Shown here: positions 4,175 through 9,581 of the stretch, one piece after another
How the letters are laid out: every line of letters begins with the position of its first letter
How positions within the stretch are numbered: position 1 is the first letter of the stretch
From: a virus
Lineage: Duplodnaviria; Heunggongvirae; Uroviricota; Caudoviricetes
DNA: 13,233 bases
Strand: one strand, 5' to 3'
IMG/VR virus record: IMGVR_UViG_2695420747_000007
Span: 1 to 13,233 of that record
Translations under genes and position numbers: made by a program
The notes under the pieces: generated by a model
Told to the model about the DNA's origin: nothing
The model's database searches: none
Seen by the model: only the letters and a program-made list of their open reading frames with translations

Positions 4175-4996
4175 CTATCGCGTTACCCTCTTTAACTGCC
4201 GCTCCGCCCATGCCTCTTCAATGTCAAACCGAACCACCAACGTATCGTAAAAGCGTTTCACTGATTTTTTCCACGTATCAAGCGTGATAGCACTCGTCAC
4301 TTTGCATATGGCATTAAATGCCTCCGTTGATGGCAGCCTTTCACAGCCACGACCACCACAACGCTGGCAATCTCTGATAACAGGCATACCACGTTTTACC
4401 GACTCTTCACGATGAATGGCGACACCACGCCCACGGCAATCCTTACAGGCGGTGGAAACCTCACCCTTTCCGCCACACTCCGGACAGGCAACTTTTACCA
4501 CCTCCCTGACTTTTTTCCATTCTTCCCAGTAAGACGGATACACGCCTTTTGTGCACTTTGCCCACACTGGTGGCTTACCATCCGGATACTGGATCTTGTT
4601 TGTAAAAACCTCGCTTTCAATAAATTTTTTTCCGTGACAGCAGGGGCACTGTTTTTTGCTCGCCGCGCTACGGGCATAATCTTCAAACGCATACGAAGCC
4701 ATAATGCGCATCACTACCGGTTTTATTTCTGCCGGAAGTTTTCTCAACGCCGCCACACGATCGCACCGACTGAGTGCATAATCTGCCAGTAATTCTGTTG
4801 CCCGCGCCCTGTCATTCATACTGATGCCCATCTTCCCCAGGAACGCAGAAAACCCCATCTCAGCCCGATTCTGTGTCATGCCCTGCGCGGCCATCACATC
4901 AGTGATACTCAGCGCATCTTTTGACGTTGAGGCCGATGCATCGGTCAGGCCAGGGGATTTTGGGGAGTAGTATTTCGGTAAATCTTCCAGTTTCAT
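4175..4996 (-). CDS. Q-like late antiterminator (273 aa), zinc-ribbon type
   Basis: ATG at 4996 overlaps the rusA stop (ATGA). Four CxxC pairs. Position immediately upstream of the lambda-like pR'. Resembles the QuuQ/YdfT class from memory. Confidence 0.8.
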   Translation of the reverse strand: MKLEDLPKYYSPKSPGLTDASASTSKDALSITDVMAAQGMTQNRAEMGFSAFLGKMGISMNDRARATELLADYALSRCDRVAALRKLPAEIKPVVMRIMASYAFEDYARSAASKKQCPCCHGKKFIESEVFTNKIQYPDGKPPVWAKCTKGVYPSYWEEWKKVREVVKVACPECGGKGEVSTACKDCRGRGVAIHREESVKRGMPVIRDCQRCGGRGCERLPSTEAFNAICKVTSAITLDTWKKSVKRFYDTLVVRFDIEEAWAERQLKRVTR

Positions 4997-7097: not shown

Positions 7098-7167
7098 TTA
7101 AGCGCGGGTGCGTTGAGGATGCCTGACACATCAGAGGCGGCGAGGGATTTCTCCCTCGCCAAGTCTC

Positions 7168-7323
7168 TTACTCCTCAGGTTCGTAGACTGTGAAGACAGC
7201 GACCTCCATCTGGCCGGTTCGGATTCGTACCTCGCAGAGGTCTTTCCTCGTTACCAGTGCCGTCACTATGACGGTTAAACAGATGACGATCAGGGCGATT
7301 AACATCGCCTTTTGCTGCTTCAT
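7168..7323 (-). CDS. hok: Hok-family type I toxin (51 aa)
   Basis: MKQQKAMLIALIVICLTVIVTALVTRKDLCEVRIRTGQMEVAVFTVYEPEE, near-identical to HokD/RelF as recalled. SD AAGGAG 9 nt upstream. An in-frame upstream ATG at 7380 gives a 70-codon mok-like frame. Confidence 0.9.
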   Translation of the reverse strand: MKQQKAMLIALIVICLTVIVTALVTRKDLCEVRIRTGQMEVAVFTVYEPEE

Positions 7324-7336
7324 AGCCTGCTTCTCC

Positions 7337-7365
7337 TTGCCTTTCGGCACGTAAGAGGCTAACCT
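7337..7365 (+). promoter_or_regulatory. sok: sok antisense promoter
   Basis: Plus strand TTGCCT-17-TAACCT, colinear with the plasmid R1 sok promoter (TTGCGC-17-TATCCT) as I recall it; lies inside the mok-like leader, antisense to hok. Confidence 0.5.
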
Positions 7366-7371
7366 AGATTT

Positions 7372-7445
7372 GCCGTTCATAGATTGAGCCTCAGATTAAT
7401 GTTAAGCGTCTTGCAGGACGCGTAATGTTAACTGGGGCTTTTCTC
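7372..7445 (+). ncRNA. sok: Sok-like antisense RNA (approximate extent)
   Basis: Inferred from the promoter above and the usual Sok length of about 65 nt; the 3' end is not defined by a clean terminator. Confidence 0.35.
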
Positions 7446-7498
7446 TATCTGCCTTTGGTGTTCATGCCTGAGGCAGATAGCCTCAAGCACCCGCAGTC

Positions 7499-7526
7499 AT
7501 TCTACTTAACTAAGATTTCCCCGCAA
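7499..7526 (-). promoter_or_regulatory. hok/mok promoter
   Basis: Minus strand TTGCGG-16-TAGAAT; the predicted 5' end GGGTGCTTGAGGCTATCTGCCTCAGG resembles the R1 hok mRNA 5' end as recalled. Confidence 0.5.
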
Positions 7527-7581
7527 ACCGTTTTTGTCCAGCACAATAAATATCCAACTAAACCAATGGAGTTCGCTGTAT

Positions 7582-7761
7582 TTACCGCCAGTATTCAATG
7601 CACATGACCGCCATGAACACCCCTAAAAAAAGGGCATTTATATATCCAAATATTAATATCAAAACATCAACTTTTTCCATATACCTTGCTGTGAAGATGA
7701 TGGGCATACATGATACGAACAACCAGAACGCAACAAACAAAAACTGCAATGCGTTTTTCAT
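7582..7761 (-). CDS. Small hydrophobic two-helix membrane protein (59 aa)
   Basis: ATG at 7761 preceded by AGGAGG (4-nt spacer); MKNALQFLFVAFWLFVSCMPIIFTARYMEKVDVLILIFGYINALFLGVFMAVMCIEYWR. The track ORF extends to a GTG at 7800. Confidence 0.5.
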   Translation of the reverse strand: MKNALQFLFVAFWLFVSCMPIIFTARYMEKVDVLILIFGYINALFLGVFMAVMCIEYWR

Positions 7762-8192
7762 TATTCCTCCTACAATCAATGTGCAATTACATTTAAACAC
7801 ACCTCAATTTGGCCGGACATATAAATATCTAAACTAGAAAAAATCACTTACATAGCGTTACAAACTCTTTAGTCTAAAGGTTCATCGTAAAACACTCCCC
7901 ATACTTATCAGTCCGTTCCGCGCCAGGTAGCTTATTGCCTTATCTGGCAACCTATAATCAGGTTTCCGCTTTTTCAGTTGGCTGGTCGTTTAACCGACAT
8001 AGTTAACCCATTAATCTAGTTGCCGGATGTTGGTGGATTTTCGCGTTTTAGTTGTTCATAAAAGTGCACAGCTTTAACCAGTTCTTCTGATGTAACCAGG
8101 GCTGGTGAGGCAGTGAATAAGGCCTGAATTTGATAGTTCGGCCTGTCGTTACAATCCTCTTTTTTCGGTACATATTTCCAGTCAACAGACCA

Positions 8193-8303
8193 CTACTTCT
8201 CCTGAAAGTCCGTAACGCCTTTTTTCACGTAGCGATATCGCCATGCCACTGGTTTTGCTTGCTCCGCCGTTTCATACCCTTCCTGATAATTAATCTCGCT
8301 CAT
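8193..8303 (-). CDS. Small ORF (36 aa) ending in TAG, with 58 further in-frame sense codons down to 8016
   Basis: ATG at 8303 overlaps the upstream stop (ATGA). After the TAG at 8193-8195 the frame continues protein-like (…PALVTSEELVKAVHFYEQLKRENPPTSGN) with no start codon of its own. Confidence 0.4.
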   Translation of the reverse strand: MSEINYQEGYETAEQAKPVAWRYRYVKKGVTDFQEK

Positions 8304-8476
8304 TCATCGCCCCACTCATCACAATATGCTTCGACCGGATTTTTTCCTGCTTCATAATCATCACGCCATGCTTCAGCATCAGCAGCACTGCCACCACGTA
8401 ACTCTGCATAGTCCATTAACAGTTCATGCCATTTTTCAAAACTGACGTTGTATTTAGTTGAACCAAAATCAGCCAT
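8300..8476 (-). CDS. Small protein (58 aa), translationally coupled
   Basis: Not in the track (under 60 aa). ATG at 8476 with purine-rich SD GAGGAA; overlaps the upstream stop (ATGGCTGA) and the downstream start (ATGA). MADFGSTKYNVSFEKWHELLMDYAELRGGSAADAEAWRDDYEAGKNPVEAYCDEWGDE. Confidence 0.5.
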   Translation of the reverse strand: MADFGSTKYNVSFEKWHELLMDYAELRGGSAADAEAWRDDYEAGKNPVEAYCDEWGDE

Positions 8477-8651
8477 TTTGCTCTTCCTCTTCGTCTTTTA
8501 TTTCGTGATATGAGTAATTGCAGTAGTTAAAGAAAATATCTTTTGCTTCGTCATGTATTTCATCAGGCGTCGCATCAGCATCCACTTCGAATTCATCCTC
8601 GAAATCTCCACCAGCCATTCCCGTTTCAATAATTATTTTGAACTTTCGCAT
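8469..8651 (-). CDS. Small highly acidic protein (60 aa)
   Basis: ATG at 8651; Asp/Glu-rich (…GDFEDEFEVDADATPDEIHDEAKD…KDEEEEQNG); first gene of a coupled three-gene set. Confidence 0.45.
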   Translation of the reverse strand: MRKFKIIIETGMAGGDFEDEFEVDADATPDEIHDEAKDIFFNYCNYSYHEIKDEEEEQNG

Positions 8652-8744
8652 TTCACTACCGCCCTTTCGGGTGGCCTCCTGCTGTTCTGAGGGTGCAGAA
8701 ATCCCTCCGGTTAAGGATTAAATTTTTAACAGTGCTAAATTTAA

Positions 8745-9101
8745 TTATTCAGTTTTGGATTTTGTCACCCTGCGTATCCACGCTTTCCCGTTACGCTCAA
8801 TCTGAATTAGCTTTTCTATATTTTTTCGCCTTTCCCGTTCCTCCTGGCGCAAGAGCCTTACATCATCTGCCAGTCTGGTTTCTCTTTTCGCCACAGAGAG
8901 CATCCAGTCAAATGGCTCCACAACTGCACCGCAGATTTTACAGCGGACCTGACGCTCTTTTTCGTCAACCCGGACAGAAGCGTGATGGCAATATGGTCTT
9001 TCCGATGGCTCATAAAGAAAATTAACCTGATTACGAGGGTCATCCTCTTTTATCGGAAATAAAACGATATTGCTTAACTAATCCTCTGGTTTTATTTCCA
9101 T
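8745..9101 (-). pseudogene. ORF interrupted by an in-frame TAG at codon 8 (about 118 codons total); Cys/His-containing protein
   Basis: ATG at 9101 with SD AAGGAG 6 nt upstream; codons ATG GAA ATA AAA CCA GAG GAT TAG, then 110 open in-frame codons (…ERPYCHHASVRVDEKERQVRCKICGAVVEPFDWM…) to TAA at 8745-8747. No alternative start between the TAG and the Cys motif. Confidence 0.4.
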
Positions 9102-9158
9102 GCTCCTCTCCTTTGATGCGAATGCCAGCGGCAATTGAAGCCTGATAGCTAATTTCAC

Positions 9159-9581
9159 TCACAGTACCGCCTCCTGAAAATTACCCTGATAGAAAGCCAG
9201 TACACGCTGCATAGCTTCGCTCTTCCGGCACTCGCGACAGATTATATTCAGGCGCCTGTCGTAGCGGCGTATTTCTCCGTCTGGTAATGACCAGATTAGG
9301 TCCGGATCAACCGCAGATGGTTTCTTCGGCTTTGCCCTTGAGAGCTTTTTACGGGCATTTTGCCAGTCCTTACGCGCCTGTTCAGACGGGAATAACCCGT
9401 AACCAGAGTTGTATACATCGCCACTGGCAACCAGCTCTCTGGCCAGAACACTCATCAGATATCTTGTTGCCCCAGTTTTAGTTTCCAGTTGTCGTAACGT
9501 CTCGCGCCCACTTTGGCGTACGAGTTCAACAACCTGCCCTTTAATTTTTTCCCGCTCTTCTTGTGTAAAAACTTTTGCCAC
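9159..9581 (-). CDS. Hypothetical replication-module protein (140 aa)
   Basis: GTG start at 9581 with AGGAGG upstream; follows the O-like gene. No family recognised. Confidence 0.6.
   Translation of the reverse strand: MAKVFTQEEREKIKGQVVELVRQSGRETLRQLETKTGATRYLMSVLARELVASGDVYNSGYGLFPSEQARKDWQNARKKLSRAKPKKPSAVDPDLIWSLPDGEIRRYDRRLNIICRECRKSEAMQRVLAFYQGNFQEAVL

Follow-up and report, generated by a model that had tools for sequence, protein, structure and literature searches.

The region at positions 7582-8651 of the 13,233-nucleotide stretch of viral DNA analysed here (the window) is probably a mosaic, partly decayed accessory-gene patch of a Qin/Rac-like lambdoid prophage, composed of four independent pieces: a module of about 430 bp that carries two small genes (gene 1 and gene 2), the wreck of a phrog_660 gene, a 340-bp AT-rich insert and a hok/sok locus. 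It is not one cassette of coupled tiny genes with a membrane protein, which is how the original prediction had described it. Genes 1 and 2, which run in the direction of the operon, are real phage genes and are conserved, a conclusion that follows from their matches to protein families, from the purifying selection on gene 1 and from the presence of homologues of both in other phages. Mosaicism of this kind is routine, and both genes are already catalogued, as DUF7167 and phrog_519, without a function. The value of the analysis is corrective: one of the “tiny genes” is a pseudogene stub, and the “membrane protein” is without evolutionary support.

Its sequence marks the window as the early-right operon of an E. 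coli lambdoid prophage of the Qin/Rac type. The stretch is identical (100%) to many E. coli chromosomes annotated by PGAP in RefSeq, and its phage relatives are ON470612 and PV340562. All genes of the region lie on the minus strand, flanked on one side by replication genes (O-like, DUF977) and on the other by hok/sok, DUF968, RusA and Q. The low G+C content that had been pointed out is confirmed (40.5% at 7582-8651 and 34.8% at 7582-7880, against 47.8% for the whole window), and the open reading frames (ORFs) that had been listed all exist, with products of 60, 58, 36 and 59 amino acids. No intrinsic-terminator-like site was found on the minus strand between 7100 and 9200, and no Rfam family was found in 7493-8750, even at a relaxed threshold (E <= 1). 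A simple promoter scan returned nothing on the minus strand; it likewise failed to detect the hok promoter that the 5' end of the Rfam-aligned hok mRNA implies. Two neighbouring genes of the prophage are broken, which argues that the prophage is decaying, so that genes 1 and 2, though intact, may be out of use here. The features of the region and its borders are as follows:

8652-8680, minus strand: leader of gene 1, consisting of AGGAGG (8675-8680), a 16-nt GC hairpin with a GAAA loop (8659-8674), 7 nt and the ATG (sequence and predicted fold)
8469-8651, minus strand: gene 1, encoding a 60-aa DUF7167 / phrog_1997 protein (Pfam, PHROG, PGAP “DUF7167 family protein”)
8300-8476, minus strand: gene 2, encoding a 58-aa phrog_519 protein (PHROG profile match)
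8193-8303, minus strand: the 36-codon “third tiny gene”, or gene 3, which is the 5' stub (first 36 codons) of a pseudogene (ORF and tblastn)
7882-8303, minus strand: phrog_660 pseudogene with a 171-codon ancestor (PGAP “frameshifted; internal stop”)
7540-7880, no strand assigned: AT-rich variable insert, about 35% G+C, between the pseudogene and hok/sok (composition, locus comparison)
7582-7761, minus strand: orphan 59-codon ORF, predicted two-helix membrane hairpin (ORF; Shine-Dalgarno (SD) AGGAGG at 7766-7771)
7168-7492, minus strand: hok/mok/sok type I toxin-antitoxin locus (Pfam HOK_GEF, 74.9 bits; PGAP name hokD)

The assignment of gene 1 to a family is straightforward, since residues 2-53 of its product align to positions 1-60 of the 60-position Pfam profile PF23768 (DUF7167) with an E-value of 4.8e-14 and a score of 52.6 bits (cutoff 24.4), and the match to phrog_1997 has an E-value of 1.3e-29. 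Precomputed PF23768 matches are also found on nearly all close homologues, and further homologues occur in Klebsiella phages and metagenomes. The original prediction of a strongly acidic first protein is correct, with 19 aspartates and glutamates against 5 lysines and arginines, a net charge of -14 and a pI of 4.06. The ratio pN/pS across 83 loci is 0.14 (0.15 for the neighbouring DUF977 gene), which indicates that gene 1 is under purifying selection. The predicted fold is a beta-hairpin followed by a helix and a disordered acidic tail. Acidity extends to the whole family, in which all of about 60 representatives at 50% identity have a net charge of -6 to -21 and a pI of about 4.1-4.6; much of the conserved acidity falls within a “DDAT-EEIEE” helix-capping motif, and the alignment of diverse members is without any conserved stretch of 7-10 columns. 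Some members are tandem-duplicated, which suggests a dimeric unit.

Gene 2 matches phrog_519 with an E-value of 5.1e-22 (79.8 bits; residues 1-58 on positions 76-137 of the 143-position profile), and has no match in Pfam or NCBIfam. A “DUF5419” label carried by its homologue in one phage record was considered and is not reproduced by current Pfam. The protein is acidic (15 D+E against 5 K+R, net charge -10, pI 4.17) and is predicted to fold as a three-helix bundle, the mean AF2 pLDDT being 77 for this model as for that of gene 1. Its pN/pS of 0.46 is a weaker signal of selection than that of gene 1. Homologues were found by tblastn in 196 phage records, including virulent Vi01-like Ackermannviridae, and the core F..WH..L..A..GGSAxDAxAW..DY..GKTP....DEWG is conserved over a range that runs from the prophages of E. 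coli to Vi01 and to a phage of Morganella.

The two genes are joined by an 8-nt overlap, ATGGCTGA, in which the start of gene 2 lies over the stop of gene 1, and gene 2 is in turn joined to the third reading frame by the 4-nt overlap ATGA. Both of the start-to-stop overlaps that had been noted are therefore present, and both are retained in about 80 related loci; the first is kept in 82 of 83 loci, and the remaining one has GTG. The arrangement of genes 1 and 2 is that expected for coupled translation, which is accordingly a prediction from the sequence. The argument that such overlaps show the genes to be real holds for genes 1 and 2, which belong to conserved families, and fails for the third frame, a stub with an inherited junction. 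Genes 1 and 2 travel, together with the leader that carries AGGAGG and the hairpin, as a mobile module of about 430 bp (8255-8681), with homology breakpoints at 8671-8681 in several loci and at 8255. The left edge of the leader is the left boundary of the module, and the other end lies within the first 16 or so codons of whichever gene comes next. About 80 loci retain the leader, and in most of them the CCGCCC/GGGCGG stem is perfect; the copy in the window has an A.C mismatch. The z-score of its predicted fold is not significant, and the hairpin was rejected as a terminator on this ground and for want of a T-run on the minus strand.

The third frame is what remains of a longer gene. Comparison of the intact protein with the window by tblastn reveals a stop at codon 37, a deletion of 30 codons, a second stop and a frameshift, and PGAP annotates a pseudogene. 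Intact 171-aa alleles are present in about 22 related loci, and their product matches phrog_660 with an E-value of 4e-75. It has no match to Pfam Ead_Ea22 (PF13935) at E <= 0.1; in other loci the same slot holds a 211-aa protein that scores 135 bits against that family, and the two share only their first residues, MSEI(N/D)YQ. From this comparison the ATGA junction is read as inherited from the intact 171-codon ancestor. The three tiny genes of the original prediction are thus two genes and a stub: the frames of genes 1 and 2 are conserved in related prophages and that of the third is not, and profile searches, a kind of check that had been proposed, place genes 1 and 2 in DUF7167 and phrog_519. 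Comparison with the intact protein places the third frame at the start of a phrog_660 protein.

The AT-rich insert is a separate and variable element. It is missing from several related loci, where homology resumes at 7511-7539, and in MN652886 its slot is occupied by an unrelated 87-aa gene. At an identity of at least 95% the segment is found in 1568 of 5426 complete E. coli genomes, and in 40 sampled RefSeq genomes it contains no PGAP feature, the 59-codon ORF included. The ORF had been put forward as a membrane protein with a strong SD sequence and a position next to hok. Those two observations are accurate. AGGAGG is followed by 4 nt and the ATG (AGGGGG in the other allele), and occurs only six times on the minus strand of the window, four of the six preceding ORF starts. 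The hok/sok locus (hok at 7168-7323, mok at 7168-7380) is directly downstream of the region, with the sok/hok-leader RNA at 7318-7492 (Rfam RF01794, 111.7 bits) and the 5' end of the hok mRNA at about 7492. As a conserved gene, the membrane protein does not stand: polymorphisms in the 133 copies in which the frame is intact are 9 nonsynonymous and 1 synonymous, PGAP leaves the ORF unannotated, and homologues outside E. coli and Shigella were absent from searches of 5.8 billion proteins, phage records and one genome per species. The neutral expectation is 23% synonymous, and a binomial calculation from the neutral fractions rejects omega values up to 0.3 (p about 0.01) but not neutrality. These data give no evidence of a protein maintained by selection, and the conservation of the frame in related prophages speaks neither for nor against it.

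Translation of the ORF is an evenly balanced proposition, and the case for it consists only of the strong ribosome-binding site and the codon periodicity: 53% of the codons have T as their second base, and G+C is 50% at the third position (GC3) and about 30% at the first two. That the ORF encodes a genuine small inner-membrane hairpin protein, a young and lineage-restricted moron with a role in superinfection exclusion, membrane perturbation or toxicity, is possible and on the unlikely side. This reading draws on the periodicity and on an SD geometry shared with the bona fide DUF977 gene, and also on the two hydrophobic 17-mers separated by a charged ARYMEKVD loop in the predicted product, on a frame that is open in the 133 copies and rearranged in 2 (IMG/VR and metagenome loci), on an orientation that agrees with that of the operon, and on the presence of other cargo genes in the slot before hok in other prophages. 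It is opposed not only by the polymorphism counts, the narrow distribution and the lack of annotation, but also by the phage annotators, who called the opposite strand, by database variants of the protein, some of which are frameshifted or truncated, by the fact that a T-rich strand yields hydrophobic ORFs from composition alone, and by the finding of no promoter-like or terminator-like site around the ORF. The ORF has no family match in Pfam, PHROG, NCBIfam or PADLOC; an alternative GTG start at 7800 would extend it to 72 codons. ORF length alone is not decisive in this segment, because the longest ORF is an antisense one of 79 codons and dinucleotide shuffles reach at least 79 codons in 1.6-3% of trials. 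The only diverged copy found (L086, 53%) was set aside as uninformative, since it belongs to a degraded prophage remnant and is itself frameshifted. If translated, the ORF would exemplify small membrane proteins that are very young and restricted to one lineage.

The role of the DUF7167 family can be approached through its neighbourhoods. Nothing was found in the literature on DUF7167, on the GenBank record MN652886 or on the N-termini of the three peptides, and no experiment, solved structure or annotated homologue that gives a function for DUF7167 or phrog_519 was found in the literature and databases. Members of the family are known from temperate lambdoids, from Guernseyvirinae and from metagenomic phages, and the argument is based on about ten loci. 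The order in one phage is N, Ral, Y8K6, DUF7167, cIII, Kil and RecT; a Lar-like restriction-alleviation gene is near a second DUF7167 gene; a third locus has GamL, RecT, further genes and then DUF7167. A further copy directly follows a gene of the Tad5 family, Tad5 being an inhibitor of ThsB (PMC13402655). Other contexts, in an NrdD/radical-SAM region and a Pam3-like phage, are uninformative. The neighbours Ral, cIII, Kil, GamL/RecT, exonuclease and Tad5 suggest, by analogy, that the general role of DUF7167 may be that of an early host-takeover or anti-defence inhibitor, to which we assign somewhat less than an even chance. A more specific form of the proposal, that DUF7167 is an unrecognised, widespread family of dimeric, acidic phage inhibitors of about 55 residues which neutralise a host enzyme that works on nucleic acids, be it RecBCD or a restriction or other defence nuclease, and which have a fold unrelated to known DNA mimics, is unlikely; if it were true, the copy in the window would be one of the commonest E. 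coli representatives. The family is compact, uniformly acidic and under purifying selection, and it recurs in very different phages among genes for host takeover and anti-defence, so that including it in screens for anti-defence proteins or nuclease inhibitors would be reasonable and cheap.

Two particular versions of such an activity were weighed. The original prediction had raised the first of these, in which gene 1 is a DNA-mimic anti-restriction protein like Ocr or ArdA whose array of aspartates and glutamates imitates the DNA backbone and blocks type I restriction-modification enzymes. The charge is present, and the uniform acidity of the small family members, the dimeric unit suggested by tandem duplication, the location of one relative two genes after ral and of another near the Lar-like gene, and the general occurrence of DUF7167 in accessory regions where anti-defence genes cluster are all consistent with the idea. 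It is nevertheless improbable, since no sequence, profile or fold link to known mimics emerged: at E <= 1 the only Pfam family other than DUF7167 is a sub-threshold AnkX_ins match, and PDB searches by sequence profile and by fold gave no relevant or interpretable relative for gene 1 (nothing interpretable was obtained for gene 2 from PDB fold and sequence searches either). There was no PADLOC match for gene 1 or for any of the other three proteins, in a library that covers defence systems rather than anti-defence proteins. Acidity by itself is common among phage early proteins, and that of DUF7167 could be structural, given its conservation in the helix-capping motif.

The second version is that gene 1 modulates DNA-end processing or recombination, either as an inhibitor of RecBCD or another host nuclease in the manner of Gam or T7 gp5.9, or as a partner of a phage exonuclease. 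T7 gene 5.9 encodes a small acidic RecBCD inhibitor and lies directly before the gene 6 exonuclease. The arrangement in Guernseyvirinae is of this kind, the DUF7167 gene being directly upstream of, and overlapping the start of, a gene for a 454-aa exonuclease, after which comes a Gp2.5-like annealing protein; in temperate phages DUF7167 shares an operon with GamL, RecT or Erf-type modules, and in ArgO145 gene 1 is in the exo-xis region. This version is also quite improbable. In the window and in a Klebsiella lambdoid, gene 1 follows the replication genes, far from any recombination gene; the predicted beta-beta-alpha fold would be unlike the helical gp5.9 or Gam; and the link to recombination is drawn from a handful of loci, and recombination genes are in any case a constant feature of lambdoid early-left operons.

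That genes 1 and 2 form an obligate two-component unit such as a toxin-antitoxin pair or a heterodimer is hardly credible and is already largely refuted by missing co-occurrence, for although the two share 8 nt and are carried together by E. coli lambdoid phages, and a homologue of gene 2 is named “antitoxin” in one phage record, no profile supports that label, two strongly acidic proteins would be atypical of a toxin-antitoxin pair, a search with an HMM of gene 2 found no homologue beside distant DUF7167 genes, and gene 2 occurs without gene 1 in Enterobacter prophages (beside Ead/Ea22 genes), Vi01-like phages and a Morganella phage. The sequence comparison thus indicates that genes 1 and 2 are independent and are found apart outside the E. 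coli lambdoids.

As independent genes within a shared module, they would, as gene order suggests, be transcribed soon after induction by polymerases that read through from the immunity region. No terminator-like site lies between them and the replication genes. Ribosomes ending gene 1 would reinitiate at the overlapping start of gene 2, and each product may act on its own, as a small acidic protein that binds or inhibits proteins of the host or of a competitor, on the assumption that they resemble the small proteins encoded around DUF7167 genes elsewhere (Ral, cIII, Kil, GamL, Tad5). The designation of an early gene fits gene 2 poorly in Vi01, because its homologue there lies just after the major capsid gene.

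Among known systems, small phage membrane proteins (Hok-type toxins, class II holins, T4 Imm and HK97 gp15) resemble the predicted product of the 59-codon ORF, which is short, two-helix and hydrophobic, with a possible dual start (GTG 7800, ATG 7761) and a place beside hok. The ORF differs from them in the lack of evidence of selection on its protein, and from Hok/Gef proteins and holins in having no profile match to any family. Hok/Gef type I toxins differ further in that the ORF has two hydrophobic segments and no antisense RNA family match (Rfam, 7493-8750), and holin-type proteins in that it is not beside lysis genes. In E. coli strain 53, NZ_CP048359, an annotated relative that carries this prophage, the lysis genes are found on the far side of the tRNA genes and the Q antiterminator.

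The product of gene 1, known from its sequence, invites comparison with DNA mimics and anti-nuclease proteins (T7 Ocr, ArdA, T7 gp5.9 and lambda Gam), being likewise small, very acidic, probably dimeric, putatively expressed early and encoded amid genes for host takeover; like gp5.9 in particular, it is in some phages encoded immediately ahead of an exonuclease. There is no sequence or profile similarity between gene 1 and any of these proteins, and Ocr, gp5.9 and Gam have helical folds where that of gene 1 is predicted to be a beta-hairpin plus helix. Profile scores place gene 1, gene 2 and gene 3 in its intact form clearly within Pfam DUF7167 and PHROGs 1997, 519 and 660, which are catalogue families without a function; the phrog_660 copy in the window is a pseudogene.

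The remaining comparison is with the accessory genes of the lambdoid exo-xis and nin regions (lambda ea22, ea8.5, orf60a, orf61, orf63 and orf73, and the P22 ea genes). Neither gene 1 nor gene 2 matched any characterised Pfam family, lambda and 933W are absent among the tblastn matches listed for the two genes, and the module in the window lies in the early-right operon after the replication genes rather than between exo and xis. According to two papers, the exo-xis region is one of the first to be transcribed and has an influence on the choice between lysis and lysogeny (PMC8614690, PMC10834534). The likeness is clearest in the Stx2a phage ArgO145, whose exo-xis region holds a trio of gene 1, gene 2 and an Ead/Ea22 gene, the module being present in some Stx2a-converting phages, and in the Enterobacter prophages where gene 2 stands beside Ead/Ea22. 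Like the genes described here, the exo-xis and nin accessory genes are small, non-essential, mosaic and packed start-to-stop in early operons, and, as here, they are exchanged between phages at short shared linkers.

The DNA comes from a lambdoid E. coli prophage of the Qin/Rac type, of which the window spans the regions for immunity, replication and late regulation. Many complete E. coli chromosomes are identical to it over bases 7400-8800, and at least 80% of this interval is present in 1214 of 5426 complete E. coli genomes. The PGAP annotation of strain 53 gives the minus-strand order as an HTH regulator and a YdaT-family protein, an O-like replication protein, DUF977, two small hypotheticals, a "DUF7167 family protein", a hypothetical, a pseudogene, hokD, and then DUF968, RusA and an antiterminator; the closest phage records (ON470612, ON470619 and PV340562) have the same layout as the window. 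All genes of the finding lie on the minus strand, which is the direction of the early-right operon, and a consensus scan of that strand over 7100-9200 returned no terminator-like site. The four open reading frames of the original prediction are present, and the cassette is AT-rich as had been claimed, with a G+C content of 40.5% over the cassette interval (7582-8651) and 34.8% over 7582-7880, compared to 47.8% for the whole window. The features concerned are as follows.

9040-9162 (-): 40-codon ORF, phrog_37408, with AGGAGG at 9170-9175
8652-8680 (-): gene 1 leader, conserved: AGGAGG, a 6-bp GC stem with a GAAA loop, 7 nt, ATG
8469-8651 (-): gene 1, 60-aa acidic DUF7167 protein
8300-8476 (-): gene 2, 58-aa phrog_519 protein
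8193-8303 (-): gene 3, 36-codon ORF
7598-7837 (+): antisense 79-codon ORF, annotated "hornerin" in ON470612 and ON470619, also annotated in PV340562
7582-7761 (-): 59-codon ORF
directly after the cassette (-): hok/mok, Pfam HOK_GEF, 74.9 bits
7318-7492 (-): sok/hok-leader RNA, Rfam RF01794, 111.7 bits
2551-3600: 349-aa DNA methyltransferase gene, between duplicated copies
583-656, 771-843, 2252-2325, 2429-2501: tRNA genes, in the duplicated late-regulator end of the window

At that end a segment of about 0.8 kb occurs twice (95-882 and 1764-2540, 100% and 96% identity), each copy with a 117-aa ORF and two tRNA genes, and there are two Q-type antiterminator paralogues of 240 and 273 aa (987-1709 and 4175-4996) with about 79% DNA identity.

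The end of gene 1 (...CAA AAT GGC TGA) contains the ATG of gene 2 in an 8-nt overlap, the end of gene 2 (...GAT GAA TGA) overlaps the ATG of the next ORF as ATGA, and about 80 related loci retain the two junctions. These overlaps had been taken to argue that all three tiny genes are real, which holds for genes 1 and 2, since both belong to families and gene 1 has a pN/pS of 0.14 (13 synonymous and 9 nonsynonymous polymorphisms over 83 loci), a level matched by the DUF977 neighbour at 0.15, but fails for gene 3. When the ORF beginning at the ATGA junction is read in 80 IMG/VR loci found via gene 1, it has 171 codons in about 22 loci and 85, 104, 119, 40 or 36 codons in others, while in some loci the slot is taken by true Ead/Ea22-like proteins (211 or 239 residues). 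By its match to phrog_660 (E 4e-75) the 171-aa form clearly belongs to that family, and it lacks the Ead_Ea22 Pfam domain, on which the 211-aa alternative scores 135 bits. The intact 171-aa protein aligns to the window by tblastn from 8303 to 7885 at 61% identity, with two stops (the first at codon 37), a frameshift and a deletion of 30 codons interrupting the alignment; the label that PGAP gives to 7882-8303, arrived at independently, is "frameshifted; internal stop". The 36-codon ORF is therefore not a gene but what survives of the head of a dead one, from which it inherited its ATGA overlap. Directly upstream of the cassette, a phrog_1621-type gene (8745-9158, minus strand), 95.6% identical to the 137-aa version in phage ON470612, carries an in-frame stop at codon 27, and PGAP, in splitting it, annotates a 107-aa protein from a non-canonical start; this stop and the pseudogene at 7882-8303 show that the prophage is decaying here. 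The 40-codon ORF at 9040-9162, which reads MSEISYQ...AAGIRIKGEEHGNKTRG, joins an Ead-type N-terminal linker to C-terminal residues of the 239-aa Ea22-like protein found in two related loci (L030 and L060), and looks like an Ead/Ea22 gene collapsed through internal deletion or recombination.

The 59-codon ORF, proposed to encode a membrane protein, lies in a 340-bp AT-rich segment (7540-7880) that is missing in some relatives and replaced by an unrelated 87-aa gene in MN652886, so the slot before hok/sok is variable. As predicted, it has a strong Shine-Dalgarno (SD) sequence, AGGAGG with a 4-nt spacer, which is near consensus, spaced as in the bona fide DUF977 gene, and AGGAGG or AGGGGG in every copy; AGGAGG occurs six times on the minus strand, four of them before ORF starts. 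The ORF also has the orientation of the operon, T at position 2 in 53% of its codons, a GC3 of 50% versus about 30% at positions 1-2, and two hydrophobic stretches flanking ARYMEKVD. These points favour a real gene, as does the frame, which is open in 133 copies (taken from IMG/VR, genomes and metagenomes) versus two that are rearranged. However, since only about 5% of random substitutions create a stop, 9-10 substitutions more often than not keep the frame open, and its openness is uninformative at such low divergence. Against a real gene, searches of Pfam, PHROG, NCBIfam and PADLOC give no match up to E 10; homologues are confined to E. coli/Shigella and, with few exceptions, exceed 90% identity; among database variants, several are truncated or have a frameshift at the T7 run; and the segment occurs in 1568 of 5426 complete genomes with no feature annotated in 40 of 40 sampled rows. 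Phage annotators called the opposite strand, where the antisense ORF, the longest in the segment, has no PHROG match; its "hornerin" label is spurious and shows that gene callers differ on the coding strand. Shuffles reach at least 79 codons in 1.6-3% of trials, and ORF length is not decisive here. The ten polymorphisms are 9 nonsynonymous and 1 synonymous, with 23% synonymous expected under neutrality; a binomial test from neutral fractions rejects omega <=0.3 (p about 0.01) and does not reject neutrality, and the polymorphism of the 133 copies gives no sign of selection maintaining the protein. The ORF may well be translated when the operon is transcribed; that it makes a functional membrane protein is unlikely.

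The ORF adjoins hok, as had been noted, with hok/mok and the sok/hok-leader RNA directly next to it, and nothing indicates a functional tie between hok/sok and the cassette genes beyond this adjacency. In the Rfam alignment the hok mRNA starts at 7492, and in loci without the AT-rich insert the homology boundary of the hok/sok cassette is at 7511-7539. Just upstream of 7492, TTGCGG, 16 nt and TAGAAT (7500-7535, minus strand) form by eye a plausible hok promoter, which is absent from the consensus-scan output.

Gene 1 scores 52.6 bits against Pfam PF23768, whose cutoff is 24.4, and hits phrog_1997 at E 1e-29. It is strongly acidic, as predicted, with 19 acidic versus 5 basic residues and a pI of 4.06. 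Searched exhaustively with HMMER (E <=0.001), 1.8 billion cluster representatives gave 81 matches, about 60 of them stand-alone proteins of 50-70 residues with 33-62% identity, and two tandem duplications; all relatives are acidic (net charge -6 to -21). They share an M+K-hydrophobic strand, a G, an acidic strand "FEVEDDAT", a helix "EEIEEEA+-hhFN" and an aromatic "YGW.E" segment, and the AlphaFold2 prediction for gene 1 (pLDDT 77) has strands at 2-9 and 16-23, a helix at 29-46 and a disordered acidic tail. The profile matches, family pattern and predicted fold link gene 1 by neither sequence nor structure to a solved DNA mimic, Ocr, ArdA, Gam and gp5.9 included; anti-restriction is still a suggestion drawn from composition. 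Overall, the original prediction is partly confirmed as observation and partly supported as interpretation. In the leader, 23 nt separate the SD from the start if no hairpin forms; the stem is a perfect CCGCCC/GGGCGG in most relatives and has an A.C mismatch in the window copy, and the fold z-score is insignificant. The leader may be a structure-assisted ribosome-binding site.

Gene 2, nearly as acidic (15 acidic versus 5 basic residues, pI 4.17), matches phrog_519 strongly and has no Pfam or NCBIfam match; its predicted structure (AlphaFold2, pLDDT 77) is three helices, for which Foldseek and PDB profile searches found no relative. Homologues occur by tblastn in 196 phage records, from E. coli lambdoids, many Vi01-like Ackermannviridae (Salmonella, Klebsiella, Escherichia) and one Morganella phage, with the invariant core F..WH..L..A..GGSAxDAxAW..DY..GKTP....DEWG. 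Because gene 2 directly follows an Ead/Ea22 gene in Enterobacter prophages (both near xis/int and after O/P) and the major capsid gene in Vi01, and its HMM has no match beside distant DUF7167 genes, genes 1 and 2 are independent accessory genes that co-travel in E. coli lambdoids. Homology breakpoints delimit a shared module of about 8255-8681, made up of both genes with the leader and roughly 16 codons from the start of the next gene, a case of the usual lambdoid exchange at short shared linkers (here MSEI[ND]YQ).

The theme across DUF7167 loci is an early accessory set encoding small inhibitors of host proteins. The Stx2a phage ArgO145 has a gene 1-gene 2-Ead/Ea22 trio inside the exo-xis region; in a Klebsiella lambdoid, DUF7167 follows replication protein P amid nin-type genes; in two virulent Guernseyvirinae it shares bases with the start of a 454-aa exonuclease gene, after which comes a Gp2.5-like annealing protein; and metagenomic temperate phages have either the order N, (Ral), Y8K6, DUF7167, cIII, Kil, RecT or the order GamL, RecT, further genes, DUF7167. 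A single case, metagenome contig ERZ23495098 scaffold_441 (locus L095, 2573-3183), puts DUF7167 within a recognisable anti-defence locus, directly after a Tad5-family gene (PF25190) whose stop it overlaps; phages use Tad5 to inhibit ThsB of the Thoeris system (PMC13402655). The remaining contexts are uninformative. Guilt by association over about 10 loci thus tentatively suggests a host-takeover or anti-defence inhibitor, a reading with somewhat less than an even chance. The same neighbourhoods weakly support a nuclease/RecBCD modulator and an anti-restriction DNA mimic, the latter opposed by the missing link to solved mimics; both are improbable, and to the same degree.

The analysis shows the gene order, orientation, overlaps, family membership and selection on gene 1, that gene 3 is a pseudogene, where the mosaic boundaries lie, and what hok/sok is. 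After induction, transcription would run from the immunity region through the replication genes into the cassette stretch, and gene 1 would be translated from AGGAGG, with the conserved GC hairpin, speculatively, giving an effective spacing of 7 nt. Ribosomes ending at the gene 1 TGA would reinitiate at the overlapping gene 2 ATG, and both acidic proteins could then act separately on host or competitor targets.

RefSeq has entries identical to the cassette sequences, and these already stand in the family catalogues under DUF7167, phrog_519 and phrog_660, so the feature is already known as catalogue entries and the finding is ordinary; its one lead is DUF7167, a candidate inhibitor of nucleases or of defence systems. 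The cassette belongs to none of the characterised families, but it resembles the small mosaic accessory genes of the exo-xis and nin regions in size, packing, position and mobility, and the closest known kind is this accessory-gene pool of the lambdoid exo-xis and nin regions.
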